Below, piece by piece: positions 2 through 55,855 of a stretch of DNA of 64,000 bases. This DNA comes from a virus (Duplodnaviria; Caudoviricetes): the IMG/VR virus record IMGVR_UViG_3300001598_000037, positions 1 to 64,000 of that record; one strand, 5' to 3'. The notes beneath the pieces were generated by a model. That model was given only the letters and a program-made list of their open reading frames with translations, made no database searches and was not told the origin of the DNA. A program made the position numbers and the translations under genes. Position 1 is the stretch's first letter. Each line of letters starts with the position of its first letter.

Positions 2-877
2 GATCCAGCTGATATTTATATTAGAGCTGAAAATAAGGCTTATTATAAAAAAGATGCGACAGCTGCCGTGACAGACAGTGACGAATTAGCTGTAAAAGGC
101 GATTTGGCGTCTTATCAACCACTTGTAACAGCTTTAGGATCTACGACAAAACCAATTTATGTAAGTTCAGATGGTACATTCGCTGAATGTTCGACTTATG
201 CAGGCGGTACTAAAGTTACATTGAACGGTACAGATAAAGGTGCCTCAACAGCATCATTCTATGCTCCAACTTCTGCAGTATCTACTTCTACAGCTAAGAG
301 ATATTTAGTTGGTAGTTCTGCAACAAATTCAGTAGCGACTGAAAATACACATGCTAGTGTATATATGCAATCAGGCAAGATTTATGCGGATGGATTCCAA
401 ACAACTGCAGTATCTTCTGAGTATATTATAATTAGTGGAAAGACACTCCGTGTTCAATCATCAACTGGCGGATCTAATCAAGATGTTGTGGTTGACACCG
501 ATGGTTTGACAATTTATCATGATCCAACAATTAATAATTATATAACTAAATATACTGATGGTCAAATTCAATATAAGGGTAAAACCTTTAACCTACCATC
601 TGCTAATGGCACATTAGCACTTACATCACAAATACCAGATGTTTCATATTCAGAATTAGCTTTAACATTCGCAGGTAGTGGTGGAGAATATAGTGAAGTT
701 ATTAAGACAACTGCTCCAATTCAAGTAATTAAAGTTTCCACACATGAACAAGTTGAGTGTAAGATTGTATATTCTTATACTAATGGTAAATTAAGTGGCG
801 CTACAATTACCATGAATGCAGATTCAGCACCAACTGGATATGCAGCTCTTTGTGTTGCAGGCAGTAGTCTTGCATAA
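2..877 (+). CDS. Tail fibre/tail-associated protein, 5' truncated by the window edge
   Basis: Frame is open from nt 2 (upstream of the track's GTG at 68). Ser/Thr/Gly-rich, with the fibre-type motif FNLPSANGTLALTSQIP shared with the 2424..4754 protein. Confidence 0.6.
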   Translation, partial: DPADIYIRAENKAYYKKDATAAVTDSDELAVKGDLASYQPLVTALGSTTKPIYVSSDGTFAECSTYAGGTKVTLNGTDKGASTASFYAPTSAVSTSTAKRYLVGSSATNSVATENTHASVYMQSGKIYADGFQTTAVSSEYIIISGKTLRVQSSTGGSNQDVVVDTDGLTIYHDPTINNYITKYTDGQIQYKGKTFNLPSANGTLALTSQIPDVSYSELALTFAGSGGEYSEVIKTTAPIQVIKVSTHEQVECKIVYSYTNGKLSGATITMNADSAPTGYAALCVAGSSLA

Positions 878-4765: not shown

Positions 4766-5089
4766 ATGGAAAGATATTATTATAAAGATGAAAAAGGTAA
4801 TTATTATAATTATACTAAAATATATGAAGGTTTAATTCCGATTACAGAAGCAGAATGGAATGAACATGTAAAAACAGAAGAACCTTCGGAAAAGCAAAAA
4901 CAAATCTGGGCTAAAAATAAAGAAATTATTATTTTAAAAGAAAATTTATTAGCTACAGACTATCAAGCTATTAAATACGCTGAGGGCGAAATTACTATTC
5001 AAGACTACGAGGCAATTAAATTACAACGACGTACTTGGCGTATTCAAATTAATGAATTAGAACAACAAATAAAAAATATAGAGAATTAA
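4766..5089 (+). CDS. Tail fibre assembly chaperone-like protein
   Basis: Directly follows the fibre gene. LATDYQAIKYAEG...IKLQRRTWRIQINELE resembles small fibre-associated chaperone proteins. Confidence 0.6.
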   Translation: MERYYYKDEKGNYYNYTKIYEGLIPITEAEWNEHVKTEEPSEKQKQIWAKNKEIIILKENLLATDYQAIKYAEGEITIQDYEAIKLQRRTWRIQINELEQQIKNIEN

Positions 5090-5090
5090 C

Positions 5091-5119
5091 TTGACGTATG
5101 TCAACTAATACTATATAAT
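5091..5119 (+). promoter_or_regulatory. Sigma-A-type promoter with a dyad over the -35 box
   Basis: TTGACG, 17 nt, TATAAT; inverted repeat TTGAC-GTAT-GTCAA at 5091-5104. Confidence 0.8.
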
Positions 5120-5125
5120 AATAAC

Positions 5126-5770
5126 TGTGATAAGGGGAGATCAACCAAATCTCCCCCTCACAATATCTTAATGATATAACTAATGAAATCATTGTATCTG
5201 GGTGCACAACCGTTATTATATGCGGTTCCCAGAGACGAGCACAGTCTAGGAAGATACTTTAATGATAGTTAGAGTATCGAGCCCAGAGCCGAGTAGTGAT
5301 ACTTGGTAAAGAGCCCTCAACATGGGGCGATAATGTGACGTTGTGCGAGGTTATTATCTGTTTAAGCTATCAAATCTTTCGCAGTAGCAATAGACGCCCC
5401 AGTGGGGAATAATCCTAAAGTGGTCGGCTCGGCCGCCGATGCGGGGCTTTAGGAAATGCCAATCAATACTGTGTGCCTTGATGTATGGGAACATAATATA
5501 AGAAAGAGGAGAGTAGGAGTAGTCGTATGGCACATTACAAATAACGAGAAAGCATAAAAAATGGATATATTTTTTTAATGGATATATTTTTTTTCTGAAC
5601 GTTCGATGAAACTTAAAGGTATTATTCCTTTCGGTGATTAAAGCGGCAAGAAGTGTGGGGGTCGCGACCTCATGCTCAGACTTGTTGTATCCGTTAGCTA
5701 ACAAGACATTTAATAATTGAGTAGAGTGAAGGCTCACAATATTTCATTAGTTATGTCATTAAGAATTTTT
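5126..5770 (+). ncRNA. Large structured non-coding RNA (~600 nt), ROOL/GOLLD-class candidate
   Basis: Own promoter; 24-bp closing helix 5166-5189 with 5741-5764 (one G-U); many internal stems, GNRA loops (GTGA, GGAA); raised GC; U-rich 3' end; no credible + strand ORF. Confidence 0.7.
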
Positions 5771-5822
5771 TATATTTATACCTTGACCGAAAAGTCATTA
5801 AACTAATCATGGAGGTATAGAT

Positions 5823-6050
5823 ATGTACAGTAATAATTTTTGCAGTCATCATAACTATAGCTTGTACTTTGAAAAGGCCGATCATAAGAAAATCATTTCT
5901 GAATCTTTTAGTAGCAGATCTGATGCTAATCAAAAAATGTATAACCTTTTAGGTAAATATAGTTTGAAGATCAATAAGATCTATGATGACAAACATGACA
6001 AAACTTACTTTTGTCAAGATGGTTCTGTTTTCCATATAAACAGGGTTTAA
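5823..6050 (+). CDS. Hypothetical protein (75 aa)
   Basis: GGAGG SD with good spacing. Confidence 0.65.
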   Translation: MYSNNFCSHHNYSLYFEKADHKKIISESFSSRSDANQKMYNLLGKYSLKINKIYDDKHDKTYFCQDGSVFHINRV

Positions 6051-6173
6051 TCTTTTCCTTAAAAGATGAAAAAAAGGTATTTGCAGATAAATGCACCTCA
6101 GGTTTATTCTGTTTATATATTTAGTCTGAATAGGATCAGACAAATTTTTATACATTAGGAGGTATTTAAAATT

Positions 6174-6545
6174 ATGAAATATGTATCAGATGATGGTAAA
6201 ATTTATAATTCTTTAGAAGAATGTAAAGAAGCCGATAAACAATATGCAGAAAAAAATAAAGCTGCATTACAATTAAAAGAGCAAAGAATTGCAGATGCAA
6301 AAAAGGTCGAAGAAGCTTTTAAAGTTATTGCTACTTTAGAAGATGAATATAACAAAAAAATTAATGAAGCTATTGATGCTTATTACAAGGAAAGAAATAA
6401 CTTTATTAAAAAATATGGCAGTTATCACATGACATTTAAGAGTGAGAATCCCGCCGATATTCGTTTATTATTTGGCGACGGCAGACGTATTAATTTAAAT
6501 AGTATGTTTGATGAACTCATTAAATTAATGTATAGCATAAGATAA
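6174..6545 (+). CDS. Hypothetical phage protein (123 aa)
   Basis: AGGAGG SD; N-terminal YVSDDGKIYNSLEEC followed by a coiled-coil segment. Confidence 0.7.
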   Translation: MKYVSDDGKIYNSLEECKEADKQYAEKNKAALQLKEQRIADAKKVEEAFKVIATLEDEYNKKINEAIDAYYKERNNFIKKYGSYHMTFKSENPADIRLLFGDGRRINLNSMFDELIKLMYSIR

Positions 6546-6584
6546 AACTTTTATTATAAACTGAGGTATATTATTTAGACAATG

Positions 6585-6609
6585 GATGGGGTATTGCCCC
6601 ATCTTTTTT
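6585..6609 (+). terminator. Intrinsic terminator
   Basis: GATGGGG-TATTG-CCCCATC followed by TTTTTT. Confidence 0.85.
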
Positions 6610-6629
6610 GTTGCAAATTGAGCAATGTA

Positions 6630-6687
6630 AAAAAATGCTAAACTAATAGCATCGCTTAATTGGGGTACTATTAGTTTAGCATTTTTT
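6630..6687. repeat. Perfect 20-bp inverted repeat
   Basis: AAAAAATGCTAAACTAATAG (6630-6649) and CTATTAGTTTAGCATTTTTT (6668-6687), 18-nt spacer. Confidence 0.9.
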
Positions 6688-6744
6688 AAAAAATAAAATA
6701 TCCCTTTTATTCGGGATCATGAAAAATACTGGAGGTATGGTGTA

Positions 6745-6849
6745 ATGCTAAAACAAACAATGAAAAATCTACATAGGAAGAAACAAATAAATATGTTTAA
6801 CCAGAATGGTATGGACTGCAACTTACTCCATACTAACATTATAATTTAA
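6745..6849 (+). CDS. Small ORF (34 aa) immediately upstream of the tape measure gene
   Basis: GGAGG at 6731-6735, ATG at 6745, MLKQTMKNLHRKKQINMFNQNGMDCNLLHTNIII; below the track's length cut-off. Confidence 0.35.
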   Translation: MLKQTMKNLHRKKQINMFNQNGMDCNLLHTNIII

Positions 6850-6865
6850 AAAGGAGGCAAATTGT

Positions 6866-9800
6866 ATGGCTAATGTAATTACTTTAAATTTCAAAGATAA
6901 CACAAATCTTAAAAAAGAAATTAATAAACTTGATGATTTCACAGATGAAATGAAAAAGAGTTTGATCAATTATTTGACTCAAGCTAATGAAGCAATAGTA
7001 GATAAACAAATTGCTTCAGAAAAAACAGTTGAACAAACTATTAGTTATCTTAATAAAGTTATGGGACAATTTAATAAAGAAGTGTCTATGTTTACTAAAA
7101 AAACAGCCCACGGCACAAATTTATATTTAGGTCTACATGAAAAAGGCACTCAAATTGATCCAAGCAAGATTGCAAAAGAAATGACTATGAAATTAGGAGT
7201 CATTGAAAAGGGTGTAGAACAAACATATAAAGGTCTACAACATGACTTGCTCGTAATGACACAAGACGGCGTTATGGGTGCTCAACAAGCTATATTAGAA
7301 ACTATAGGCGGTATGGTAGAAACAATTGATATTGAATCAAAAGAATGGGCAAGCAATTTAAAAGCTGCTCTTACAAAAGGTACTGCTGGTTTTCAAACTT
7401 TACAAAGACGTGCAAAAAAAGAAGTTGAAGCGCAACCTCAATTTATTTCGAAGAGCGATCAAAGTGATTTCAATCGTCAAATGCAAATGGTTGATAATCA
7501 AATAAAAAATGCGATTAATGGAACTAAAACTATAAATATGACTAAATACTTCCATGAAATGATGTATCGTGGTGGTCAAGGTACACAATTTGCTGGTCTT
7601 AGTAAAATAATGAATAAATATCGTCAATTAGACAAAGTTTATAAAATGCAAGGGGCAGGTTTTGATAAATTCAGAGAAGATGCTGCCATGTTAATTTCTC
7701 TAAAACAAGCAGGTTATACTAATAAAGAGTTAGTAGGTAAAAATGGTTTTGAATTATTTAAGGACTGGACCGAAAAAGATCTTAAAAACTTTTTCGATTT
7801 ACAACAAATTGCCAAAGTAATTAAATTACCTGGTAATATTAATAATACATCTCAAAGCTCGTTAAAACATGGACAAATTAGTATTGGAGGAGCTGAACAA
7901 ACTTTTGGTGGTTTAGGCAAAAATTTCTCAAGAAAATTTATGCAAAATTTACAAGAAGCCAAGAATATAGTCGCTCCTACACATGGTATTAAAAAGCGTT
8001 TCGGAACTCAAAATGAAAATTATGATGCTCATGATTATGGAACTTTAACTTCTGACGAAAAAGCAATGTCAGGATTTTTAAGGACATTAGAAGCTGATTT
8101 ACGCAAACAATTAGAATCAGGTTCTGATGCAAATTTTAAGAAGATGTCCGCTGCTCGTCAAAATGAATTAATTAGAAAGAAAATTGTTCAACAATATGGT
8201 GATGTATATAATGCGTTTAGAGAAGGTAAAGTATTTGTCGCAAAAGATCTCCAAGAAGATTTAATTAAAGAAGAAAAAGGATCTATAAGTGTTAGCGGAG
8301 ATAAATGGAAAGCAGAATTAGAAAAACAACTTAAACTTTCTTTAAAAGATAGTAAATATAAGAGTTTAAATTTAAAGAAAGGTACTACTTTTGATTCTAT
8401 TGTATCAGGTGCACAATATAAAGAATTAAGAGAAGAAGTTATGAAAAATGCGCTAGGAGTATTAGATCCTAGAGTTTTAGCTCATAAAAATAGTTTAAAA
8501 ATTAATCCTGCAAATATTATTACAAATGGTATTATGAAGGATATTCAATGGTCTTACAGTGAAGCATTACATAATGGAAGCAAATTAATTGCGCCTGGAC
8601 AAGATGAGCGTGTTACTACCACTCTTGTGGATCGCAAATTTATTGAAAAATTTGCTGAATATGTTTTAGGTAAAGATTACGCAAAATTTAATAAAAATCA
8701 TAAAGTAGACGTATTAAAAGGCCGAGAACATGAAATGGGTTATAAGACTATGGCCAGTGATATTACTGGTATTACAAAGTCTTTAATTCAAGAACGTGTG
8801 GCCGAAGGATCATCGGCTGGTCAAACAGAAGAACAAGTTATTACACAAATTAATAAAGAATTAAATAAATTTTTAAAAGATAACGGATACGGTTCTGTCA
8901 AAGCTGAAAATGGTAAAATATTAGATAATACAGCTGTTTTAGAAACTATTAATAAAATTAAAGATGAGTCTTTACGTATTCAAAAAACTGAAGAATTTTT
9001 AATGGGCTGGTTTAATACTCTAAAAGCGGGTACAGCCGAACATTTTATACAACAAGTAGTTGACAGCGAAGGAAATATTAAATATAAAAAAGACAGTAAA
9101 GGAAATTTTATATTAGATAGTAATAATAATAAAATTCCAGAAATTCGTTCAGGTATTAAATTTAATACTCCTGCTTTTGGTTATAATTCATATGCATTAC
9201 ATAATGCGAGAAGTTATGATGACGTCTTTATTAAAGCACAAAGAAACGGTCAAGGTTGGGGTATTGGTGGTTATAGAGGACGTCAATCTTTAGGACTAAG
9301 TACAGGAATTGCTCGTTCAATTGCTGGCAGTGAAAGAGATTTAGAAAGAATTAAATCATTAGAAATGGTCCTAGACTCTATGTATAGTAATACAACTATG
9401 AGTTCGGAGCAATATGACGACTTAAAAAAAATGGCTCAAAAAATTAATCCACTTAATCAACCAGACCGTTCGAAAATTGGTCAAAATAACATCATTGACC
9501 TTAAAGAACTATATGGTATGAAAGAAATGGAAGAATTAGGGGAAGAAGATTACGTCGGAGGTAAAATTACTCAAGAGGCTTTCTCAAAAACTATTGAAGG
9601 TAAAATTGGTAAAATCATTAATGAACGAAATATCACAGGAGATGTATATGTTCAAACTCCTAATGGCGATTTAATTTATGTACCATCATCTGATAGCCAA
9701 GAGTTGGGCAAAATCGCTGGCGGCACGTCAAAAAAACGTCTTGAACAACTTACAGATGGAGATAAAGTTCAAACTGTAGTTAGTTCAGATATTATGATGC

Positions 9801-11638
9801 AAGGATCTGGCTTTGGTTCTTATATTAATAGTTTACTTAATACATATTTTGATGACGAAGGCAATAGGAAGCAAATCACAGAAAAAACACATGAGTTTGT
9901 ACAAAATGCTCAAGAGACTTACTACAATACAGTTAATACATCCTTCCAAAAAGGTGGAATGATTTATGATGCTGCTTCTCATAGCGCGAGTACGTCAGCT
10001 ACGTATGGAAAATCTGAAAGTTTTAATACACATGAAGTGGAACAATTATATCAAGAATATAAAGACGCAACTGATCCTGAAGACAAGGCATTGTTAAAAC
10101 AAAAAATTTTACAAGCTACAGGCGGTATTACATTATCAAAAGATAATTTAGCAAAAATGCTAACAACTGCACCTGAATTAGATGGTGAAGATAAGAAGAA
10201 ATGGAAAGAAGTTAATAATGCTCGCTTACTTGGAATGTACAAGGCGTTAAGAGATAAATATCAACAAAATTCGGCCTACACATTCGAAGGTGATGAAAAA
10301 ATTGGCAAATGGGATAGCAAAAAGTTGGCCTCTGAAATTGCTAGTATCGTAGACACAGAACGAGAGGGATATAACGGGGAAAGTTTAGCCTCTATTGTTG
10401 GCCGTTATCCATTTTCACATGGTGAAGACTTAAAATTTGCAGGTTTAAGAGTTGCAGGAAATTCTGATGTTGTTAAAATCGGAACAGGATTAGCTAAAGA
10501 AATAAATGCGGACTTCGATGGTGACTCTATTCTTTCAATGTTATTAGGTTTTAATATTAAAGATTTTAGAGAAAAAACAAAAGAACAAATTGCACAAATT
10601 TTCCAAGAAGCTACAACTGCATCTTATAAAATTCAAGAAGTGCATGAAAAAAGAGCTCAAGTAGCTGCGGCTGCTCAAGCTATGGCACAAAAAAAAGATG
10701 AAGAAGAATGGGCTGCTGCTGGATTAACCCTTGATGAACAAAAAGCCCTTAAAGTTGCAGCCGCTGGACAAAGAACCGCTATTGAAGCAGGTATTGCTGA
10801 AAGATTTGGTAAAGAGAAAGTTGGACAATTTTCTAATATTTATCAAAATTTACACAATGGTCTAGTAGGCATGAAAATCAGTTCTGAAGGAAATTTACAA
10901 GGTAAAGACAGTGAAGATGCAATGGCTGCATTGGCAGTGAGCTCGATTTTTGAAGCTGTTACGCAAGAAGCAATTTCATCTAAAAAAATATTAGAGGGTG
11001 GAGTCGAAGGCAAGTTCTTCAAGAATTATATGAATAATATAATGAAACTAACATCCATGTTTGATCCTACTAAAGAAGGAGATTTCCAACAAAAAGATTT
11101 CTTCAAAATTTTAGATGATTTAGGTATTAATGCGGGTTTTAAAAAAGGAGAAGGCTCTTCATTTTTCGCATCAAGAATTGGTACACAAATTGCTACAGAA
11201 ATGTTGCAGTTTGGTAATCGAGCAGAGGCACAAGAAAATTTATGGAATTTAATATCAAGTTCTGGTTATAATGGAACTAAAGACGATTTTCTAAAGATTC
11301 TTCCTCAATTTGATGAAAACGGCGTATTAAATACTGCCGAATATGAAAAAAATAAAGATGCGTTTGAGAACCTATTTACAAAAGATGTTTTATCTGGTAT
11401 GTTTACAAAGTTAAACACTAGTTTAACAGGTAAAAATTGGCAAGATACATGGAATAGAGTTTTCACAGCTGGACAGAATGGTATATTTGACATAGCTACT
11501 CATAAAGCCGATAGACCTGGTACAGAAAAGATGATCGATGTTGACGCTGCTATGGAAGCCCAAATGCAAGGCATGGGAGCTTTCGTTGGTAGTTTAATTG
11601 AGGCAACATCAGCATTAAAAGAATTTACTGGTGCCCTA
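6866..11638 (+). other. Putative virion RNA polymerase region of the tape measure polyprotein
   Basis: RYPFSH (nt 10403-10420) and NADFDGD (nt 10505-10525), spaced like NRxPxLH...NADFDGD of beta-prime; downstream VGQFSN and QEAISSKK resemble the motif order of single-chain two-barrel polymerases. Confidence 0.75.
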
Positions 11639-14600
11639 GGCGGCTCTGGAGGCGGCGGAGGCGGAGGAGGTATCTTCCGTAGTCCATTTGATGTGGCTAA
11701 GCAATTGGGTGAAAATGAAAAAGGATTAATTAATTCATTTAATTCTTGGTCAGCATCTAAAATTACAAATGCTTTAAATCCAACAAATTATGACAATCAA
11801 CAATATCTAGATAAACAAATCAAAGATATTATTGAGGGAAAAGCTAAATATAAAAATGACTTCTTTGGCTATGGTAGCGCTGAAGAATTACAACAAGCAG
11901 TCGGCGGACATTATCTAGCTGCAGATGCTGGTCACGTTTCAGAAGACGTTGCCAACGTATTTATGCAACTAAAGAAAATGGGCTTAGACGGTAAGTATAA
12001 GAGTTTTGATGCAGTATATAATGATGTTCAAAGAGGTGCTTTTAAAGGAGTTAAAGGTGTTTCAACGCTTAAAGGTTTAACAGAAACAGCTTATAGAACT
12101 ATTTATGGCGGTAAAGTTGGTAAAGATCGCGTAATCGGATATAAAGAAAAAGAAGAATTATTACAACAAGCATTGGGCGATTTATATGGTGACTCAACTT
12201 TAGCAAAACAAATAGAAACAGGTATTGGCCAAAGCGACATGTTATCAACCTTATTAAATTTCAGAGGATATGATAAAACTAGTAGCGGCACTGAAACTAT
12301 TTCAGCAGGTTTTTTAGGAAATCAAGGCACTATTACTAGAGCCGACTATTCTACTTTATTAAAAACCGATGCGTTCGGTAATAAGAAAGACACTTTCGCA
12401 TTCTTTGATTTTAAAAATAAAGATAAAAAAGCTGTCGGTGTTAGTGACGTTATTCAAGGTGTTTTAAACTATAATAACCTTGAAACTATGAGACAACTTG
12501 CTCATCAATATGAAAATTTTGAAGATTTTAAAGATTTAGATATCTATAAAAATTTACAATCTTCTTGGGAATATTTTAACCCAGGCGAAAAATTTGATGG
12601 TGCAAATTATTTTAAGAGTTTAAAGAAAGCCGATAAGGTTGAAGGTTACGTAGCTCAAGGTAATAAATTACATAAATTAAATATTGACCAAACTAGCCTT
12701 TCTCGTTATATGAAGATCGTTGATAATTTAATGAATGGCAACGGCACTTTAGATGATTATCGAGATGAAATTGGTCGTTTATATAGTAATATCCCTCTTC
12801 CAGGAACAGTAGATTTACCTGGAAATGAGTATATGGGAAAAGGTATTGGATTGGCCAAGGATTATTTAAATGTTCAAGACAAAATTGATGCATTAAATGA
12901 TCGTAAAGGACAAATTGAAGGCAATTCTGAAGCTGAGGAAAAATATAAAAAAGTACTAGAGGAAGAAATTGCATTACTTCAACAACGTAAGAATTTAATT
13001 GAAGAAGCTATTAAAGCTGACGATAGTAAAGCTGGTATTGATAAAGATATTCAAGACGAATATCAAAAACGTGCAGACAAAGAAGCTGAACGACAAGCGA
13101 AATTAGATGAAGAAGCCAGAAAAGAGGCTGAAAAAGAGCAAAAACAAAAACAATTGCAATTTAATCAAAATCTTAAAGGTTATGATGCATTACTTAAAGA
13201 AAAAGCTAAATTAGATGCTGAATTATATAAAGTTGAACACCAAGGCGGTAATCTAAAAAATCCGCAAGCTACTCAAGATTATATTAAGGAATTAAAGAAT
13301 CAACAACAATCTAAAGAAGCTGAAATTCAAACTTATCTTGCTGAACATGATATGAGTCTTAATCCAGAAGAAGTTGATAAAATTAAAGAAGAGGTAGATA
13401 ATGCTGCTCATTTAAAACAATTAAAAACTGATACTGGTATTAAAGTTAATGAATATTATGGTTTTTTGAGCGATAAACAATTAGTTAGTGCTAGTGGAAA
13501 TGTTCGCGCACAATTGGCCGAAAAAGAAGATCAATTAAAGAGTAGTTCGGTAGTTACGGCAACCTTAACAGAAGCCGAGCAGTTAGAAGCCGAGATATTT
13601 AAAAATGATCTTAAAGAGGAAATTGCTCTTTTAGAAAGAAAGAAAGAGTTAATTGACGATGCGATTGCGGCTATTGATGATCCAAAGAGAAGAGAAGCAA
13701 TCAATGGTGAAGCCGCGATGAAAGAACGAGCTAAACAAGCTCGTTTAGAAGAAGATCATCTAAAAGAATATCAATCATTAATAAAAACACGTACTGTTAC
13801 TAATAAACAGTTTATGGATGCGGCATATAATACAACCTTTGCTAAAGATCCAAAACAACAACAATATTTTGCTCAAAATCAAGCAGAATTAAAAAAACAA
13901 TTAGAAGAGCAAGATCGAATCATTAAACAATTTGAGGAAACTCATGGTTATGATAATAATGATAAGGCGAAGAAAATTCGTGACGATGCAGCCGCTAAAA
14001 GCCAAATTGAGCAAAATAATATTATGGCCCGTGCTGTGCAAGCCGAAAAACAACAAGGCGTTCGTGGATTTATTGGTAGTTTCGGTTCGAATTTCGCAAA
14101 ATCTGCTAAGCAATTCTTAATGTATCAAACTTCATTTAATGCGTTGTTCCAAAAATTAAGACAAGGTCTTAAAACTGTTGAAACACAAGTTAAATCAATG
14201 AATAAATCATTAGTGGATTTACAAATTGTTACAGGTAATACTAAAGAAGAAACAATGAGTTTACTTACATCTTATAGTAAATTAGGTAAACAACTTGGTG
14301 CAACTACTACGGAAGTTGCTAATGCTGCTAACTCTTGGTTAAGACAAGGTTATGAAGCTGCTGATGTTACAGAACTAGTTACATCTTCTTTATATCTAAG
14401 TAAATTGGGTATGATCGACTCTGCTCAAGCTACACAAAATTTAACATCAATGTTAAAAGGTTTTAAACTTGAGGCTAGCGATGCAATTAGTGTTGTAGAT
14501 AAATTAGTTAGTGTTGATATGAAAGCAGCTGCCAGTGCAGGTGGTATTGCTGAAGCATTAAGTCAATTTGCTACAACTGCACAATTATCTGGTTTAGATA

Positions 14601-17600
14601 TGGACAAAGCTATTGCGATGGCGACAACTATTATGGACGTATCACAAGCAGCTCCTTCAAGTGCAGGTAATGCATTAAAAACCATTCTTTCTAGATTTGG
14701 TAATGTTAAAGCTGGTGCTTTTGAAGATATGGGCGAAGGAGAAGACGGCACATCAATAAACGATGTTGAAAGAGTTATTAAAACTTTGGGTATTTCACTC
14801 AAAGATAGTAAGGGCGATCTTCGTGATTTTAGTGATGTGTTGGAAGATATCGCTGAAAAATGGGCAAGTATTGATGAAATTAGTAAAAATGCGTTGGCAA
14901 CAGCTTTTGCTGGTACAAGACAACGTGAATCATTCCTTGTTTTAATGGAAAATATGGATAAATACCATGAATTAATTGAAGTATCGGCTAATTCAGAAGG
15001 TACTGCAATTAAAAAATATAATGCTTATTCTGATAATTTAGAAGCATCTCAAAAGAGAGTTGCGGCAGCATGGGAAGAATTAGGTAATAATGTTAATTTA
15101 CAAAATTTAATGATTAAAATTAATGAAATTATCGAAAAACTGGTAGATATTCTTCCTTCATTAATTAAATGGACTGAGAGAATTGCCTCTTTACGTATCG
15201 GTGCTGGACTCGGCCGTATTCTTGGTACAGGGCTTACTACTGGTCTCGCAGGAGCTGGTAGTCGTTTATCTGGTTTAGGAGTAGTAGGCGGCATTAAAAC
15301 CGTGGCGTCCGACGTTACTTATGGCGGAGTTTCATTACTGGGAAAAGGTCTTAAAGGCATAGGTGGCTTACAAGGTTATAAAATGAATCAATCACAAACA
15401 GTGATTCAAACATTAATATCTAAAGTTACTACCTTACAGCGTGCCATTGAAACGAATACACGTGCTGTTTTAGGAAATACACAAGCCGAACAGCAAGATA
15501 ATCAAAATGGAACAGGTGGATCAACACCAATATTTAATAGTGGTGGATATGTAGCGGCGCAAAATTTAATTAATACTCAAGGAACAACAATTAATGGCAC
15601 TCAAGTATTACAACATACTTATAAAAATAAAACATATCAAATGGACCCTAAAACAGGGAAAATGTATAAAGTTCTTAAGAACGGACAATTATCAAAATGG
15701 GCGGCTCCGTCTAGAGTGACCAAAGATATGGTACAAAAAGATTCTACTGGTACTTATCAAAATTATTTTAATCAAATGAGATTAGATCAAGGTAAGACTT
15801 TAAATAAACAACAAATAAACAATATTAATAGTCAGATTGCTTCTAATAATAAAACCCTTCAAGGTTGGACGAAAAACGACAAAGGTCAATGGATATCAAA
15901 GAAAACAGGAAAAGTAGCGAATAAGAGTTGGACTACACGCTTAAATAATGCCCAAGCTAGTAATGAACAATTACAAGCACAACAACAACAAAGTGAGGCT
16001 AATAAAGCACAAAAAGGTAGTGCGGCTGCTGGAGTTATGATTCAGATGGGCGCAGCGATGGCAATGGGAGGACTTATGGGCTCTCAAAATTATGCTAAAT
16101 CTTCGACTATTACTGATTCGACTGGCCAAGAAATTCAAGCGGCTATGACAAAAGAAGAAGAAGCGACAAGTAGAAAATGGAGTACTGTATCAGGTATTGC
16201 TTCTGGTATTCCAATTTTCGGTCCAGCTTTTTCACATTTATATGATTTAAGTGTAAAAAACAATTGGGGTAACAAATATGGCGTCAGTCGAGGCTTAGCT
16301 CGATCAGAACAAGAAGCAGCCAATAGTAAAAAGACATTGAATGCTATTACAGGAAATCTTGATAAATTTGCCAAAGCTGCAAGTTCGGGCGATTTAGATA
16401 GCGGTAAAAAAGAATTAGATGATATGATCTCGACTTTATATAAACGAGATGAAGAAGGTCGTGATGTAAATAAAACAGGAAGAGAACAGTATGAAAAATA
16501 TTTAAAAAATATTTTAGGTGATAAGTTCGGTTCTAATTTATTAGAAATTACTAAAAATGTTGAAGGTGATGTCGCCGCACAACGCGAATTATCTCAAGCA
16601 ATGTTAATTGCCCAAGAACAGGCAAATAGAGAAAATTTTATTGCTTCAAATGCAAAAGAAAACAATCAACGCGGAAAAGCGGCTGACGAAGCTTGGTTAA
16701 AATATAAAGACAGTGATTATCAAGAAAAAGTTAAGGCGGCTGGTAATAAGGCTGGATGGGAAACTGGCGCTACGGTTGGTGTAGCATCTGCCGCCGCCGT
16801 TATTGGTGTCGGAGCTGCTATTGCAGGCGGCTTGTCTAGTATTCCTGTTGCTGGTTGGATTGCGGCTGGTGCAACTATGGTTGTAACGGGCGTTACTGCT
16901 GGTATTGTGGCAGCCAAGGAAGCAGAGTTAAAGAAACAAGCTGAATTAGAAGCTGCAAATGCCGAACGTGGTAAAACATATGAAGATAAAATAAATGAAG
17001 TTGAAGCGGCCATTGATTTAGCTCGTACTGAAGGTGATACTGCTGCAATTTCTGAACTTCAAGAAATCAAAGATACATTACAACAAATTCAAATTGAACA
17101 AGAGCAATATTACAAGGAATTAGACGAATCATATGCAAAAGAAGCTGTTCTAGGTATGAAGAGTGCTGACGGTACTTTCTTAGCCAACTTCTCAGAAGCT
17201 CAACTAAAACAAAATATTGGTAAAAATGGTATTGAACAAGCATTTGGAGAATATTTAGAATCTATTGGTGGTTTATATAATTCTGATGTATTTAGTACCG
17301 ATGGATCATTGTCTGAATATGCTCAATCATTATTAAAAACTGCCATTAAAGAAAATTCCACATTAAATGCTGTGTATACTGGAAATGCATATACATTATC
17401 AGAAGCTTTACAAAAGAATGATACAGATTTATTACAAAATTTTGCCACTGCTTTAGGAGTTTCGGTTGATGCATTGAGTAATATGGAGGATCAATTTGGA
17501 CGTATTGAACTCGGCGATTTCATGTCGACGATTGATGATTTGAATACTAAGATGAGTAAATTAACTGAAAATATTACTTTCTTAACTGATTCAACTAAAT

Positions 17601-19642
17601 CTCAATATGAAAAAGAAATGATGATTATTAATCAGTATCCTGAATTAATCAATTTAATGGGAGATACTCCAGCCTTATTGTCAGAATTTTGGAAAGATCT
17701 AGGTCAATTAGCAAATGTTCAAGCTGAAAAATTAATCCAAGAAATTTATGATCAAGAAGAATATTATACAAAGACTTTATTACCAGAACTTCAAAAGAAT
17801 GAGCAATTTAGCGCCAAATTTAACACAGTTGGTGATGAATTAAGTTCTGTAACTTCAATTACTGGATTAATGAAATATTTAGCGCGCAATGGTGATTCAG
17901 ATTTTTCATCGACTATTCAAGAACTAGTTGCTGGGCAATTAGAAAATGTGGATGCGGTAGTGGATGTATATCGTGAGTTATTTGATCAAATGGATGAATA
18001 TAAAGTTCATCTATTAGATGAACAGTTAGAAAACTTAAATAGCCAAAAAGAAGCTTTAGAGCAAATTACTGCTCAACGTGAATACGAAAATAAATTATTG
18101 GAAGCTCGTAATAAGTTAGAAACAGCTTTAAATGAGAAAAAACGTGTTTGGCGAGAAGGTGTTGGCTGGGTTTATGAGGCTGATCAAGAAGCAATTGCCG
18201 CAGCAGAAGAAGAACTCGATAGTCTTAGTACAGAAAAACAAATTTCTAATTTGGAAGAAACCATTAAAGAGATCGAGGCTGAAAAACAACGTATTTCAGA
18301 TCGCAAAGATGCTGAAAAATGGAAACAACAACAAGAATTGTTTGAATCTTATTTTGGTAAAGGTGAGGGTTCTGTCAACTCATATATTCAAGCGGTTCAA
18401 ACTGCTGTTGAAGGAATTCAAATTGATGTTGGAGGCACGACAGGTGCAATTAATGAAGATATTGAAAACAAAGAGCTTGCGCGTCAAGAGGCCTTATATG
18501 GCGCTGGTGGATCTAAAGATAATGTAAAAGGTGGTTTAGCTGCTGCTAAATCGAAGTTAGTTGAATTGTCAGCTCAATTAGAAGGCAAAGATAAACTACA
18601 AATTACCAATGAACAAAGATCGGCATATAATGATGCATTAGAAGAATATAGTAATTTAAGAACTCAAGCTCTATCCAACGGTTATATTTCATCGGATGAT
18701 TTAGATTACATGTCAACGACTTCTATGGGTGGCACAGTCACTGATAATCTTTATAATGGTGGTTCAAAAGTTAAGGGACAAGATGTCTTCCTTACAAACG
18801 ACCGTAATGACGGTAGTGGCGCTTATAAGAAATATATGGTTGGTGATATGACAGCGGCCGACTCTCAAGAAGCTAAGTGGGTATATGGCGATATGACAGA
18901 AAAGAAAAAATGGGCTCATGGTTTCTTACCAGATGGCACAGTTATTTATTTCTGGAATGGTATGGCCTATAGTAAACCTGGTGCTAAAGATATGAAAGCT
19001 AAAGAAAGATTAAAATATGAATTAACTCAATATTCAGTTGGCGATGCAACCGATTTATCAAGTTATGCGTCTAAAGTAAAAAATATTCTTTTAATTGGCG
19101 CTCATGGTGATCAAGAAGCTGTTGTTATTAAAGATGGTAATTTATTTACTGCGTCCGTTAATGATATGAGCGAGGAGGAAAAGAAACTACTTGCTGGCAA
19201 AGGTGGAGGTTATTATTTAGATGGATCTGGTACAAGATCTGGCGCATGGGGCGAAAAAGGAGCTATTGTTGGCGCCAATGCTTTGGGTACGCTAAACTTT
19301 GCTGGTGGACCATCTCTAATTAATGAATTAGGAACGGAAGCTATTATTACACCTCATGGAACTATTACTTCTCTACCTTCTGCAACAGGTATTGTTCCTG
19401 CTGATATTACCAAGAACTTATGGCAATTAGGAGAATTAGCTCCTGCTATTGCTCAAGGTCTTATGATGCCTGGATTCGGTTTCAATTCAACATTTGGAAC
19501 TCCAGCTAATCAATCTGCTGTTGATGAATCATTTAATATTACAAATCTTACAATGAATGTTTCAGCTGATGATTCATTTGATGCCGATGCTTTCGTTAGA
19601 GCAATCCGCACAAAAGCTGATCTAAGCCGTAATAGTCGTTAA
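6866..19642 (+). CDS. Giant tail tape measure protein fused to an N-terminal two-barrel RNA polymerase and a putative nuclease domain (4258 aa)
   Basis: AAGGAGG SD; NADFDGD at residues 1214-1220; TP901-type tape measure core at about residues 2410-2740; hydrophobic Gly/Ala segments; C-terminal ANALGTLNFAGGPSLINELGTEAIITP motif typical of tape measure C-termini. Confidence 0.85.
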   Translation: MANVITLNFKDNTNLKKEINKLDDFTDEMKKSLINYLTQANEAIVDKQIASEKTVEQTISYLNKVMGQFNKEVSMFTKKTAHGTNLYLGLHEKGTQIDPSKIAKEMTMKLGVIEKGVEQTYKGLQHDLLVMTQDGVMGAQQAILETIGGMVETIDIESKEWASNLKAALTKGTAGFQTLQRRAKKEVEAQPQFISKSDQSDFNRQMQMVDNQIKNAINGTKTINMTKYFHEMMYRGGQGTQFAGLSKIMNKYRQLDKVYKMQGAGFDKFREDAAMLISLKQAGYTNKELVGKNGFELFKDWTEKDLKNFFDLQQIAKVIKLPGNINNTSQSSLKHGQISIGGAEQTFGGLGKNFSRKFMQNLQEAKNIVAPTHGIKKRFGTQNENYDAHDYGTLTSDEKAMSGFLRTLEADLRKQLESGSDANFKKMSAARQNELIRKKIVQQYGDVYNAFREGKVFVAKDLQEDLIKEEKGSISVSGDKWKAELEKQLKLSLKDSKYKSLNLKKGTTFDSIVSGAQYKELREEVMKNALGVLDPRVLAHKNSLKINPANIITNGIMKDIQWSYSEALHNGSKLIAPGQDERVTTTLVDRKFIEKFAEYVLGKDYAKFNKNHKVDVLKGREHEMGYKTMASDITGITKSLIQERVAEGSSAGQTEEQVITQINKELNKFLKDNGYGSVKAENGKILDNTAVLETINKIKDESLRIQKTEEFLMGWFNTLKAGTAEHFIQQVVDSEGNIKYKKDSKGNFILDSNNNKIPEIRSGIKFNTPAFGYNSYALHNARSYDDVFIKAQRNGQGWGIGGYRGRQSLGLSTGIARSIAGSERDLERIKSLEMVLDSMYSNTTMSSEQYDDLKKMAQKINPLNQPDRSKIGQNNIIDLKELYGMKEMEELGEEDYVGGKITQEAFSKTIEGKIGKIINERNITGDVYVQTPNGDLIYVPSSDSQELGKIAGGTSKKRLEQLTDGDKVQTVVSSDIMMQGSGFGSYINSLLNTYFDDEGNRKQITEKTHEFVQNAQETYYNTVNTSFQKGGMIYDAASHSASTSATYGKSESFNTHEVEQLYQEYKDATDPEDKALLKQKILQATGGITLSKDNLAKMLTTAPELDGEDKKKWKEVNNARLLGMYKALRDKYQQNSAYTFEGDEKIGKWDSKKLASEIASIVDTEREGYNGESLASIVGRYPFSHGEDLKFAGLRVAGNSDVVKIGTGLAKEINADFDGDSILSMLLGFNIKDFREKTKEQIAQIFQEATTASYKIQEVHEKRAQVAAAAQAMAQKKDEEEWAAAGLTLDEQKALKVAAAGQRTAIEAGIAERFGKEKVGQFSNIYQNLHNGLVGMKISSEGNLQGKDSEDAMAALAVSSIFEAVTQEAISSKKILEGGVEGKFFKNYMNNIMKLTSMFDPTKEGDFQQKDFFKILDDLGINAGFKKGEGSSFFASRIGTQIATEMLQFGNRAEAQENLWNLISSSGYNGTKDDFLKILPQFDENGVLNTAEYEKNKDAFENLFTKDVLSGMFTKLNTSLTGKNWQDTWNRVFTAGQNGIFDIATHKADRPGTEKMIDVDAAMEAQMQGMGAFVGSLIEATSALKEFTGALGGSGGGGGGGGIFRSPFDVAKQLGENEKGLINSFNSWSASKITNALNPTNYDNQQYLDKQIKDIIEGKAKYKNDFFGYGSAEELQQAVGGHYLAADAGHVSEDVANVFMQLKKMGLDGKYKSFDAVYNDVQRGAFKGVKGVSTLKGLTETAYRTIYGGKVGKDRVIGYKEKEELLQQALGDLYGDSTLAKQIETGIGQSDMLSTLLNFRGYDKTSSGTETISAGFLGNQGTITRADYSTLLKTDAFGNKKDTFAFFDFKNKDKKAVGVSDVIQGVLNYNNLETMRQLAHQYENFEDFKDLDIYKNLQSSWEYFNPGEKFDGANYFKSLKKADKVEGYVAQGNKLHKLNIDQTSLSRYMKIVDNLMNGNGTLDDYRDEIGRLYSNIPLPGTVDLPGNEYMGKGIGLAKDYLNVQDKIDALNDRKGQIEGNSEAEEKYKKVLEEEIALLQQRKNLIEEAIKADDSKAGIDKDIQDEYQKRADKEAERQAKLDEEARKEAEKEQKQKQLQFNQNLKGYDALLKEKAKLDAELYKVEHQGGNLKNPQATQDYIKELKNQQQSKEAEIQTYLAEHDMSLNPEEVDKIKEEVDNAAHLKQLKTDTGIKVNEYYGFLSDKQLVSASGNVRAQLAEKEDQLKSSSVVTATLTEAEQLEAEIFKNDLKEEIALLERKKELIDDAIAAIDDPKRREAINGEAAMKERAKQARLEEDHLKEYQSLIKTRTVTNKQFMDAAYNTTFAKDPKQQQYFAQNQAELKKQLEEQDRIIKQFEETHGYDNNDKAKKIRDDAAAKSQIEQNNIMARAVQAEKQQGVRGFIGSFGSNFAKSAKQFLMYQTSFNALFQKLRQGLKTVETQVKSMNKSLVDLQIVTGNTKEETMSLLTSYSKLGKQLGATTTEVANAANSWLRQGYEAADVTELVTSSLYLSKLGMIDSAQATQNLTSMLKGFKLEASDAISVVDKLVSVDMKAAASAGGIAEALSQFATTAQLSGLDMDKAIAMATTIMDVSQAAPSSAGNALKTILSRFGNVKAGAFEDMGEGEDGTSINDVERVIKTLGISLKDSKGDLRDFSDVLEDIAEKWASIDEISKNALATAFAGTRQRESFLVLMENMDKYHELIEVSANSEGTAIKKYNAYSDNLEASQKRVAAAWEELGNNVNLQNLMIKINEIIEKLVDILPSLIKWTERIASLRIGAGLGRILGTGLTTGLAGAGSRLSGLGVVGGIKTVASDVTYGGVSLLGKGLKGIGGLQGYKMNQSQTVIQTLISKVTTLQRAIETNTRAVLGNTQAEQQDNQNGTGGSTPIFNSGGYVAAQNLINTQGTTINGTQVLQHTYKNKTYQMDPKTGKMYKVLKNGQLSKWAAPSRVTKDMVQKDSTGTYQNYFNQMRLDQGKTLNKQQINNINSQIASNNKTLQGWTKNDKGQWISKKTGKVANKSWTTRLNNAQASNEQLQAQQQQSEANKAQKGSAAAGVMIQMGAAMAMGGLMGSQNYAKSSTITDSTGQEIQAAMTKEEEATSRKWSTVSGIASGIPIFGPAFSHLYDLSVKNNWGNKYGVSRGLARSEQEAANSKKTLNAITGNLDKFAKAASSGDLDSGKKELDDMISTLYKRDEEGRDVNKTGREQYEKYLKNILGDKFGSNLLEITKNVEGDVAAQRELSQAMLIAQEQANRENFIASNAKENNQRGKAADEAWLKYKDSDYQEKVKAAGNKAGWETGATVGVASAAAVIGVGAAIAGGLSSIPVAGWIAAGATMVVTGVTAGIVAAKEAELKKQAELEAANAERGKTYEDKINEVEAAIDLARTEGDTAAISELQEIKDTLQQIQIEQEQYYKELDESYAKEAVLGMKSADGTFLANFSEAQLKQNIGKNGIEQAFGEYLESIGGLYNSDVFSTDGSLSEYAQSLLKTAIKENSTLNAVYTGNAYTLSEALQKNDTDLLQNFATALGVSVDALSNMEDQFGRIELGDFMSTIDDLNTKMSKLTENITFLTDSTKSQYEKEMMIINQYPELINLMGDTPALLSEFWKDLGQLANVQAEKLIQEIYDQEEYYTKTLLPELQKNEQFSAKFNTVGDELSSVTSITGLMKYLARNGDSDFSSTIQELVAGQLENVDAVVDVYRELFDQMDEYKVHLLDEQLENLNSQKEALEQITAQREYENKLLEARNKLETALNEKKRVWREGVGWVYEADQEAIAAAEEELDSLSTEKQISNLEETIKEIEAEKQRISDRKDAEKWKQQQELFESYFGKGEGSVNSYIQAVQTAVEGIQIDVGGTTGAINEDIENKELARQEALYGAGGSKDNVKGGLAAAKSKLVELSAQLEGKDKLQITNEQRSAYNDALEEYSNLRTQALSNGYISSDDLDYMSTTSMGGTVTDNLYNGGSKVKGQDVFLTNDRNDGSGAYKKYMVGDMTAADSQEAKWVYGDMTEKKKWAHGFLPDGTVIYFWNGMAYSKPGAKDMKAKERLKYELTQYSVGDATDLSSYASKVKNILLIGAHGDQEAVVIKDGNLFTASVNDMSEEEKKLLAGKGGGYYLDGSGTRSGAWGEKGAIVGANALGTLNFAGGPSLINELGTEAIITPHGTITSLPSATGIVPADITKNLWQLGELAPAIAQGLMMPGFGFNSTFGTPANQSAVDESFNITNLTMNVSADDSFDADAFVRAIRTKADLSRNSR
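11740..12480 (+). other. Putative PD-(D/E)XK (RecB/Cas4-like) nuclease domain inside the tape measure polyprotein
   Basis: SWSASKI...AGHVSE...E1810...RAD(1827)...DFK(1848-1850)...Q1864-Y1869, following a poly-Gly linker at 11639-11671. Confidence 0.5.
14100..15100 (+). other. Tape measure core domain (TP901/PhageMin_Tail-like)
   Basis: MNKSLVDLQIVTG...YSKLGKQLGATTTEVANAANSWLRQG...AGNALKTILSRF...ALATAFAGTRQRESFLVLM. Confidence 0.85.
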
Positions 19643-28242: not shown

Positions 28243-29403
28243 ATGAATAGAAAAGTGAAAATTATTTTCTCTGGTGTAAATGGCACTTCTAATAATAATA
28301 TACATGATGGTAAAATGACTGTAAACTATTTTTATTTATTTAATGTGGATGATGCAAATACTCAAGCTATCACCAGTAAAACTGATTATGCCGAATTGAT
28401 TGAGAGAGCAGATTCTTTTGTTTCTCCAGTTTTAATGAATTATCAAGCCAATACTAAGTATCGAATTCATCGGGACCGTCCATATGCTGGTCTATATCCG
28501 ACATCTGAAGAAGGTAGTGAATTTTCTTTTTATAGAAGAGAATATCAAAAGGTTTCTAAATTTTTAGGTATGGAAATGGATGAACACGGTCATGCTCAAC
28601 CGTTATATGATAATTATACTATTATTGGCGAGTGGGAACCTGTGGCTTTACATTTTAAAAATGGTGTTTTCAGAGATTTTAATATTAAAAATAATATGTC
28701 TTATCAATATATTATGTATCCTGTAGAAAATTCTAATCAACAGGCGTTTGCCAATGGTAAAACAGGAGAAACGCACATCGATGGCGATCCTGTAAAAGTT
28801 TTTTGGAAAGACTGGAGTATTACAGAGTTAATTCCTGTAGAAACTGCTTTAGATGCTCCGATTATTCAAAAAACATATAAAGCCGACATTGATAACATTT
28901 GGCTATTTAAATATAATTTAGAGGTAGGATCTCAAACTCAAAATATTACCAAGAATGAGGTACAAACTTTGGGACAATATTCACGAATAGCCTATACGCC
29001 TTATAATGTAATCTCTGGCGATGTTTCTTGTATGCTTGGAAGTGAAATTATTCCTTATGGGGAAGGATATATTGAAAGAATGTATCAAAGTATTAATAAA
29101 CCTTTAACAGTCAATGAAAAGACACTAATGTTGAAAAAATGGCGAGCATTGGTTGCCTCTAAAAATCCTAAATTATTAAAAGATAGTAAGGGTCAAAGTT
29201 GGATTGTTCAAATATTTGGCGGATCAAACACGCCAAATAATGGAGTTAAAAATCAACCAGATTCAATTAGCTTCTCCTGGAAAGAAATAGGATCAACGGA
29301 CAATGTTGTTATTTACGGTGATGGGGATAATATTAATAGAACAGGCGGATGTAATTCTAAATGGATTCCGACTGAAGAGGTGAAAAAGCCATGGCTGAAA
29401 TAA
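28243..29403 (+). CDS. Distal tail (Dit)-like / minor tail protein
   Basis: NVISGDVSCMLG...KKWRALVASKNPKLLKDSKG...ISFSWKEIG; sits before the hub-like gene. Confidence 0.5.
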   Translation: MNRKVKIIFSGVNGTSNNNIHDGKMTVNYFYLFNVDDANTQAITSKTDYAELIERADSFVSPVLMNYQANTKYRIHRDRPYAGLYPTSEEGSEFSFYRREYQKVSKFLGMEMDEHGHAQPLYDNYTIIGEWEPVALHFKNGVFRDFNIKNNMSYQYIMYPVENSNQQAFANGKTGETHIDGDPVKVFWKDWSITELIPVETALDAPIIQKTYKADIDNIWLFKYNLEVGSQTQNITKNEVQTLGQYSRIAYTPYNVISGDVSCMLGSEIIPYGEGYIERMYQSINKPLTVNEKTLMLKKWRALVASKNPKLLKDSKGQSWIVQIFGGSNTPNNGVKNQPDSISFSWKEIGSTDNVVIYGDGDNINRTGGCNSKWIPTEEVKKPWLK

Positions 29404-30686
29404 TTAAATATATTGGTGTATCCAGTGGAGATTTACTAGCAATCTCCATCACTAACGGAGATATTTATCTAAACGCAGATTGTGATATTGAAGATATTAT
29501 CAATTTAATTGGTGATCAGGTTATTGCTTCGCATGCGAAGATTCTGGTATTATATCCCGATGAAACTATTAACTATGAGATTCCTCAAGAAGATCTAAAA
29601 TCTGGGGGATCTTATAGTGAAAACTATCAAAATGGTCAACGCCGCTCACTATCTTTTTCTTTATATAATGAAGATGGAAAATATACACCTAATATTAATA
29701 CATTATGGGCAGGCACTAGACTACGTTTGGATTTAGGATTAGAAAGAAACGATGGTAGTATTATCTGGTTTAAAAAAGGTGTCTTTGTGATCTCTTCTTC
29801 TTCTGTAGATGAAACGTCTAGCGGAAAATTCGTGAATATTCAAGCTGGTGACAAATTTAGTATTTTTGAAAATAAAACAGGTACATTAGAAGATACTTAT
29901 GAAATTCCAGTCGGCTCAGATATTCAATCCGTGATTCAAGATATTCTGTGGAAAAATCAGGGAGATGGACATTGTTTTGATATAAAACCTATCATTTATC
30001 ATTCCAGTTTTTATGGTAAAAAAACACAAGCAACAATTTCCAAAACTGCTGGTGATTCACTAGGATCTTTACTACTCGAATTAGCAACACAACTATCTGC
30101 CGAGATTTTTTATAATTCCGAGGGAAATTTAACATTGGTTCCAAGTATTGAAACCACACTAGACGTGGACAAACCTTTAATTTATGAATTTACTACGGAT
30201 AAGGGCGATCTTGGTGGATTAGATTTATCTTTTGATATGAATTCAATCATCAATCGTATTATTGTGATGGGAACTTCGGGCAATAATGGATTCCATAAGG
30301 CAGTTGCGATTAATGATGATCCAGGTTCGCCATTGTGTTATCAAAAAATTGGCTATAGAACAGGTGGAGTTATAAATGATAGTAATATAACTAGTGATTA
30401 TTTAGCCGAAGAACGTGCTAAATATGAGTTGCGTAAACAATTAATTATCAAAAGCTCTACAAGTGTAAATATTATTTTTAATCCATTATTAACAGTTAAT
30501 AATTTAATTGCCATTAACGATGATTTTTTCAATTTTAATCATGAAAAATTTTTATTACAAGGAATTTCTTGTAGTTTAGATTATTCAGGACAAATGTCTA
30601 TGACCATCAGCAATATTGCTAATTTCGCTTTCTTAAGTGGTGGTCGTGCAATTGCTGGTTCATATGCAGAAGTTCTGTCCGAATAA
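29391..30686 (+). CDS. Baseplate hub / Tal-like protein
   Basis: RRSLSFSL...KKGVFVI...LATQLSAEIFYNSEGNL...INRIIVMG...ERAKYEL...FNPLLTVNNLIAI pattern of hub proteins. Confidence 0.6.
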   Translation: MAEIIKYIGVSSGDLLAISITNGDIYLNADCDIEDIINLIGDQVIASHAKILVLYPDETINYEIPQEDLKSGGSYSENYQNGQRRSLSFSLYNEDGKYTPNINTLWAGTRLRLDLGLERNDGSIIWFKKGVFVISSSSVDETSSGKFVNIQAGDKFSIFENKTGTLEDTYEIPVGSDIQSVIQDILWKNQGDGHCFDIKPIIYHSSFYGKKTQATISKTAGDSLGSLLLELATQLSAEIFYNSEGNLTLVPSIETTLDVDKPLIYEFTTDKGDLGGLDLSFDMNSIINRIIVMGTSGNNGFHKAVAINDDPGSPLCYQKIGYRTGGVINDSNITSDYLAEERAKYELRKQLIIKSSTSVNIIFNPLLTVNNLIAINDDFFNFNHEKFLLQGISCSLDYSGQMSMTISNIANFAFLSGGRAIAGSYAEVLSE

Positions 30687-55392: not shown

Positions 55393-55401
55393 AGATTTTA
55401 A

Positions 55402-55430
55402 TTGACAAAGCAGTTTATATCATTTATAAT
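55402..55430 (+). promoter_or_regulatory. Sigma-A promoter driving a non-coding transcript
   Basis: TTGACA, 17 nt, TATAAT. Confidence 0.85.
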
Positions 55431-55436
55431 AATTAT

Positions 55437-55800
55437 AGGGTAGCAATCCCTTGCTGAGTGATCAGCCTATGTGCGCAGTAGAAAAACCACTTAGGCACGG
55501 AGTGAAGATATCGTGCACCTGATTTGTTTATTACAGGAGATGCTAGCATTACTCCTGTATGTGAGGGCACAGGTTATGCTTGTGTTCTCTTCTCTGTCCA
55601 CAATGTCGGATAAACTCCACTATATGGAATGTTAGTAGGTTCGACTCCTACTGTGGGCACAATCTTCTGAATAAACCGCTTAGCAAGTGGAACTAGAAGA
55701 AAAAGGAGTGAGACCCCTCCGATAAGCGTGGTCGAAAAATAGGAGCGACAAGGTTGCTGGATAGCAGTAGACGAAAGTCGAGAATCCTGTCGCTCTTACG
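55437..55800 (+). ncRNA. Multi-hairpin structured RNA (~360 nt) containing a tRNA-like module
   Basis: GCTGA-GTGA-TCAGC, TACAGGAG/CTCCTGTA, GAGGGCACAGG/CTTGTGTTCTC, TAGGAGCGACA/TGTCGCTCTTA, GAC-GAAA-GTC; raised GC; no ORF. Confidence 0.65.
55596..55659 (+). tRNA. Minimal tRNA-like element (acceptor + T arm, no canonical D or anticodon arm)
   Basis: GTCCACA/TGTGGGC acceptor, GTAGG-TTCGACT-CCTAC T arm; only 64 nt. Confidence 0.45.
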
Positions 55801-55855
55801 CATTTTATATACCTTAAATAAAATGGTGATTTTATTTAAAGAATTTGGGGGTTAA

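Follow-up and report, generated by a model that had tools for sequence, protein, structure and literature searches.

A full-length ROOL family match in the tail gene module of a probable SPbeta-like phage record without tRNA genes

The DNA analysed here (the window) comprises the first 64 kb of a 90,810-base IMG/VR virus record, estimated by CheckV to be 66% complete, and positions 5166 to 5764 of its plus strand almost certainly encode a member of the ROOL RNA family (RF03087). When the 64-kb window was scanned against 4227 Rfam families, ROOL was the sole family to reach its gathering score, matching 5174-5753 (+) at 263.4 bits versus a gathering score of 99.1 (E 5e-59) and spanning model positions 1-574 of 574; no match at gathering score was obtained in the window for the GOLLD, OLE, RNase P, or group I/II intron models. 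An earlier note had described an ornate non-coding RNA of about 600 nt at this place, either ROOL-like or a new large RNA class, and had called for this covariance-model search. What the search returned is a complete ROOL copy, which begins with the 5' strand of the closing helix P1 and ends with its 3' strand; the ROOL-like reading was correct, and a full-length match at this score removes the novelty of the other. The best explanation, which we regard as very probable, is that 5166-5764 (+) is the ROOL gene of an uncultured, distantly SPbeta-like phage of a low-GC Gram-positive host. The copy is an ordinary family member; the unusual part is its setting among tail genes without tRNA genes, and this context and a variant of the L18 loop are modest additions to what is known of ROOL.

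All of the conserved blocks of the family were aligned (CAAUAGACGC, GAAUAAUCC, GGAAAUGCCAA, AGUAG, UUCUGAA, GUGAAA, GCUCAGAC, and GAAGG), with GUGAAA present as AUGAAA in the window copy. Every defining ROOL feature that could be tested was found; the tRNA neighborhood, which is frequent in the family but not defining, was not. With solved and typical ROOLs the copy shares the consensus architecture, the conserved blocks, a pseudoknot, a linker, a self-complementary L18 loop, a phage as carrier, a length of ~600 nt, and a low-GC Gram-positive-type genome. It differs from typical ROOLs in lying in a tail gene module rather than a tRNA island, in carrying an extra 37-nt 5' hairpin, in lacking a small hairpin at model positions ~446-462, in having the L18 loop GUCGCGA instead of UCGCU, in a linker with a 17-nt tandem duplication, and in its score, which is 263 bits compared with ~400 bits for ROOLs in tRNA islands. 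Since the small hairpin is lacking, the stoichiometry of the window ROOL could differ. A new large RNA class that merely resembles ROOL would suit the score below that of typical ROOLs, the missing small hairpin, the extra 5' hairpin, and the want of a tRNA context, but the match takes in all 574 model positions with 2.7 times the score required for gathering, and the conserved blocks are all there together with a family-specific pseudoknot, leaving this alternative very improbable. We rejected it on the full-length Rfam match, the covariation, and the pseudoknot.

The closing helix described in the earlier note is real: 5166-5189 and 5741-5764 form 23 Watson-Crick pairs and one G-U pair with no mismatch, and this helix is present in both the minimum free energy (MFE) fold and the centroid fold. 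Its proposed extension is likewise seen in the MFE fold, where, beyond a bulged C5190, ATTGT (5191-5195) is paired with ACAAT (5736-5740). The MFE of the whole region is -206 kcal/mol, compared with -161.7 ± 5.1 kcal/mol for dinucleotide-preserving shuffles (z = -8.6), and most ROOL hairpins appear in the MFE fold together with the closing helix. The eight internal motif pairs listed beforehand were all located, and seven of them fit the ROOL consensus structure or covariation; the exception is CTTGTT/AACAAG. As a hairpin this last pair was rejected as not a family pairing: in the P17 stem, CUUG (5681-5684) has CAAG (5647-5650) as its partner, and AACAAG takes part in a long-range helix of the ROOL consensus structure.

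Comparison ROOLs were gathered from IMG/VR by conserved motifs, with 21 confirmed by Rfam. The window RNA and ten IMG/VR ROOLs (n = 11, five lineages) were examined for covariation by RNAalifold, independently of the Rfam model. Compensatory changes on both sides were present in 49 of the 76 consensus pairs among these 11 ROOLs, those of P1 included; covariation, whose absence had been named beforehand as counting against the RNA, was thus found. The TGTGCC/GGCACA helix was also borne out, as a pseudoknot spanning 5472-5534 (+): UGUGCC (5472-5477) pairs with GGCACA (5529-5534), and the pairing is a pseudoknot because it crosses both the long-range helix 5369-5380/5503-5514 and stem P14. Both of its strands are unpaired in the Rfam consensus line, and it covaries in five of five lineages (UGUGCC/GGCACA, UGCGC/GCGCA, AGCGG/CCGCU, UUGCAC/GUGCAA, and CUGUC/GACAG). 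It probably corresponds to P10 or P13 of PMC12286853. A further pairing, a proposal of earlier work that PMC12286853 cites, joins UCUGA to UCAGA; on the plus strand of the window, UCUGA in the linker flank (5594-5598) is complementary to UCAGA in the internal loop J17/18 (5676-5680). Both blocks are nearly invariant across ROOLs, and for that reason no covariation can be read for this pairing.

The minus strand of the same region holds an open frame of 127 aa with a GTG start (5354-5737), which raises the alternative that the region encodes an antisense protein and that the RNA structure is incidental. Beyond the frame itself, open for 127 codons from its GTG, the evidence runs the other way. 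The ORF has no Pfam or PHROG family match, and 14 other ROOLs stay stop-free on the antisense strand for no more than 47-96 codons. Between relatives, substitutions follow the compensatory pattern of RNA pairing and not a codon-wise one, and all other ORFs of at least 100 aa in the window are on the plus strand. The earlier note had held that a conserved, translated antisense product would speak against the RNA; the ORF is not kept in relatives and matches no Pfam or PHROG protein family, grounds on which it was rejected as a real gene. We consider an antisense protein scarcely credible, and, as judged from the sequence comparison, the ORF is an accident of the RNA sequence.

Stem P14 (5522-5527 with 5602-5607) encloses a loop of 74 nt (5528-5601, +) that falls on the model's long unconserved loop in the alignment, and ~59 nt of it (~5535-5593) are A/U-rich, unaligned to other ROOLs, and constitute the variable linker. 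Within the linker is a perfect tandem duplication of 17 nt at 5560-5593, in which AATGGATATATTTTTTT occurs twice with a 100% match; the duplication suggests recent slippage or a bivalent site. Elsewhere in the window the 17-mer has only three further sites with three mismatches each, which is chance level, and nothing in the window pointed to an antisense target or to a repeated binding site for it. The linker is disordered in the env-120 structure, in which it occupies the cage interior (PMC12286853), and a linker placed there can carry a duplicated motif.

The P18 hairpin (5653-5675, +) has a 7-nt loop, GUCGCGA (5661-5667), that contains the six-base palindrome UCGCGA. The L18 loop of other loci is UCGCU (n = 16) or, in L002, L004, and L005, which form one lineage of stand-alone IMG/VR ROOLs, UAGCU; GUCGCGA recurs in two metagenome ROOL fragments, L049 and L057, with altered stem bases. 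These two were the real ROOLs among 28 metagenome matches to a pattern for this type of L18, the other 26 being GC-rich chance matches, and both matches to the pattern in viral sequences were chance matches without ROOL. A self-complementary core is kept in all three L18 forms (CG or GC, AGCU, and UCGCGA). In the solved ROOLs, L18 is a symmetric Watson-Crick kissing loop that joins half-shells (PMC12286853, PMC12990946); PMC12286853 names it bridge B6 and PMC12990946 describes it as the 4-bp L15-L15'' contact, and in the alignment of PMC12286853 L18 was too conserved for covariation analysis. The variants are consistent with the half-shell kissing contact, which by analogy would form in the window copy as well. 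An L18 that varies by lineage among self-complementary sequences is the type of covariation that the structural papers lacked for this contact.

ROOL is among the few natural RNAs known to build a closed cage without protein. The solved ROOLs have a flat monomer and assemble into a protein-free, dihedral closed cage ~28 nm across, with assembly persisting down to ~12.5 nM RNA (PMC12286853, PMC12990946); they comprise the env-120 octamer, the Enterococcus faecalis tetramer and octamer, and the Ligilactobacillus salivarius hexamer (PMC12286853, PMC12990946). By analogy with these structures, the window ROOL probably forms a cage too. An ultrashort apical stem accompanies the L. salivarius hexamer (PMC12990946), and because the apical stem of the window copy (5414-5453) is full-length, an octamer may be likelier than a hexamer here, an assignment to which we attach low confidence. 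GOLLD is similarly a large, ornate RNA of phages and prophages that makes an RNA-only cage with a disordered internal linker and, like ROOL, has no known function (PMC12286853), but it differs from the window ROOL in having an unrelated sequence and fold, and the window holds no gathering-level GOLLD match.

The ORF upstream of the ROOL gene ends at 5089 and is directly followed by a sigma-70/SigA-type promoter, TTGACG-17-TATAAT (5091-5119, +). This promoter had been pointed out earlier; it matches 11 of 12 consensus positions and is one of only 10 TTGACN-N16-18-TANAAT sites found by a regular-expression scan of the 90.8-kb record. Its -35 box lies within a short inverted repeat, TTGAC-GTAT-GTCAA (5091-5104), which could be a small operator or chance; the repeat also yields a minus-strand promoter-like site (5104-5075) with no minus-strand gene nearby. 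The region ~55400-55805 (+) holds another strong promoter, TTGACA-17-TATAAT, which ends at 55430 and has a structured leader (-10.7 kcal/mol) behind it; ARAGORN called no tRNA in that region.

We infer that the ROOL transcript starts at ~5126, at the base of the leader hairpin and 7 bases past the -10 box. The hairpin (5126-5162, +) is 37 nt long and lies outside the ROOL model. Its core is the one already proposed, GGGGAGAT with ATCTCCCC (5134-5141 with 5149-5156, eight Watson-Crick pairs), extended by five Watson-Crick pairs between TGTGA (5126-5130) and TCACA (5158-5162). Among the leaders of the 10 strong promoters in the 90.8-kb record it ranks first in stability, and its folding energy of -18.4 kcal/mol lies beyond the 1st percentile (-14.0 kcal/mol) of random 45-nt genome windows. 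Effects of 5' stem-loops and of RNase J1/Y are established in Bacillus subtilis, and on the strength of that work the hairpin is probably a 5' stabilizer against the 5'-dependent RNases of Bacillota.

At the other end, the U-rich stretch described earlier is present right behind the closing helix as a run of six U (5766-5771, +) that begins one base after P1 and is a possible non-canonical termination point. A pattern scan found no canonical terminator after P1, and for this reason the RNA may belong to a longer transcript, with read-through into the tail genes. In our reading, P1 and the U run give at least partial termination, and ROOL is likely expressed as a discrete, stable RNA with a predicted start, end, and abundance. 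In the competing view, ROOL is no free RNA but belongs to the downstream mRNA (genes at 5823-6050 and 6174-6545 and the tape measure gene), either as its very long, structured 5' leader or as a part of a precursor that is processed, with the promoter at 5091 serving mainly the tail genes. It draws on the presence of only the six-U run, with no terminator-like site, between P1 and the next start codon, on a same-strand ORF that starts 59 nt past P1, and on the co-transcription of most other ROOL loci with neighboring tRNAs, from which they need excision. Against this, a 24-bp helix and six U can by themselves halt the polymerase or make it pause; the next gene (start 5823, with a GGAGG before it) is preceded by a weak promoter-like site (TTGACC-16-AATCAT, 5783-5810); discrete ROOL at rRNA-like levels occurs in L. 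salivarius (cited in PMC12286853); and the ROOLs of L002, L004, and L005 have their own promoter and a strong terminator, which shows that the family works as a free RNA. We therefore regard the mRNA-leader reading as unlikely and favor a discrete RNA.

The lineage of L002, L004, and L005, for which stretches of 5.8 to 14.2 kb were fetched, resembles the window copy in having no tRNA in the fetched stretch, in its own promoter (TTGACT-17-TATAAT), in its scores (245-258 bits), and in the missing hairpin at ~446-462. It differs in that the promoter runs straight into P1 without a leader hairpin and in having a strong intrinsic terminator and the L18 loop UAGCU, and the sequences are otherwise divergent. 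A further difference is that the ROOLs of G001 (the record of L002) and G004 (that of L005) lie at the record end, within 272 and 1380 bases, respectively. G004 and the 5.8-kb L004 record are classed as provirus.

We propose that the host-type promoter at 5091-5119 would start the transcript at ~5126, the first 37 nt of which would fold into a stable, 5'-protecting hairpin and the following ~600 nt into a flat ROOL monomer. Such monomers would join themselves into a closed, dihedral, homo-oligomeric RNA-only cage, with the A/U-rich linker (~5535-5593) placed inside it and the UCGCGA of the P18 loop zipping two half-shells together. The RNA would probably be an abundant, trans-acting accessory factor of the phage, and its cage may hold or sequester a cell component, perhaps one that belongs to the translation or tRNA machinery. 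In the published ideas on ROOL, the cage encapsulates or sequesters tRNAs, ribosomal subunits, or macromolecules of other kinds; to our knowledge, no cargo is known for any ROOL. That ROOL acts by encapsulation or sequestration is a tentative and rather doubtful proposition.

The ROOL gene lies within the tail module, 1.1 kb upstream of a tape measure gene of 4258 aa (6866-19642, +) in which PF10145 matches only residues 2472-2682. The protein is far longer than usual tape measure proteins, and tblastn with its first 1591 aa gave no match in five SPbeta-like phages. A tail protein ORF lies at 29391-30686, and Sak4-like and DnaB-like genes come after it; the helicase shares 38% identity with SPbeta YorI, which makes the phage a distant SPbeta-like one. 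The virus record, the tape measure, tail, Sak4-like, and DnaB-like genes, and the likeness to YorI all mark it as a Bacillota phage or prophage. ROOL is absent from SPBc2, Staphylococcus SPbeta-like 2, Enterococcus EF5, Mammaliicoccus phi6255, and PhiSepi-HH3, in a search that does find it in G000, G001, G002, and G004; ROOL is therefore not a fixed part of SPbeta-like genomes.

Two small plus-strand ORFs of 75 aa and 123 aa (5823-6545) stand between ROOL and the tape measure gene, followed by a 320-nt gap (6546-6865). Siphophages usually keep their tail assembly chaperones in the region before the tape measure gene. Neither small ORF received a Pfam name; the 75-aa ORF has a faint PHROGs match to phrog_13805 (function unknown; E 0.0029) and the 123-aa ORF none. 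No ORF between 2 and 6545 was named by Pfam or PHROGs, a search of IMG/VR with the upstream 776-aa protein gave no close relatives, and neither the ROOL region (blastn) nor the first 20 kb (megablast) found a match among 50,697 phage records.

ARAGORN found no tRNA gene anywhere in the 90.8-kb record, the window included, and the remark in the earlier note that ROOL is found near tRNAs does not apply to this locus. Elsewhere it does: of the 21 other ROOL loci sampled, 18 are situated within tRNA/tmRNA arrays, and a tRNA ends ~22 nt before ROOL in 18 loci, so that ROOL there must be cut from a tRNA precursor. The tRNA setting that underlies tRNA-related ideas of ROOL function is absent in the window phage, and a phage that keeps ROOL without any tRNA gene implies that a cis-linked tRNA is not required. 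The retention of ROOL in a large tRNA-less phage, in a structural-gene operon and with its own promoter, weighs against models of the cage that depend on a cis tRNA. If the placement among tail genes is functional, the cage would act with the late or virion machinery and not with tRNAs, for example in transcription by the phage's own polymerase or in timing with virion assembly; this would, if true, narrow the question of what ROOL does. We hold as a long shot the combined proposal that ROOL was cut loose from tRNA islands and moved to the virion/tail module upstream of the tape measure gene in this SPbeta-like lineage, that this placement is functional, and that the L18 change from UCGCU to UCGCGA or UAGCU is the first natural covariation for the half-shell kissing loop.

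Other RNA genes accompany ROOL at several of the sampled loci. In ten loci (L010, L011-L013, L016-L019, L021, and L022) the tRNA arrays that hold ROOL also contain a phage-borne tmRNA gene, which lies ~1.2 kb downstream of ROOL in L010, L012, L013, L016-L019, L021, and L022. In the metagenome fragment L049, a drum RNA (RF02958, 65 bits) and a tRNA are situated just downstream of the ROOL fragment, at 215-323 (-) and 492-565 (-).
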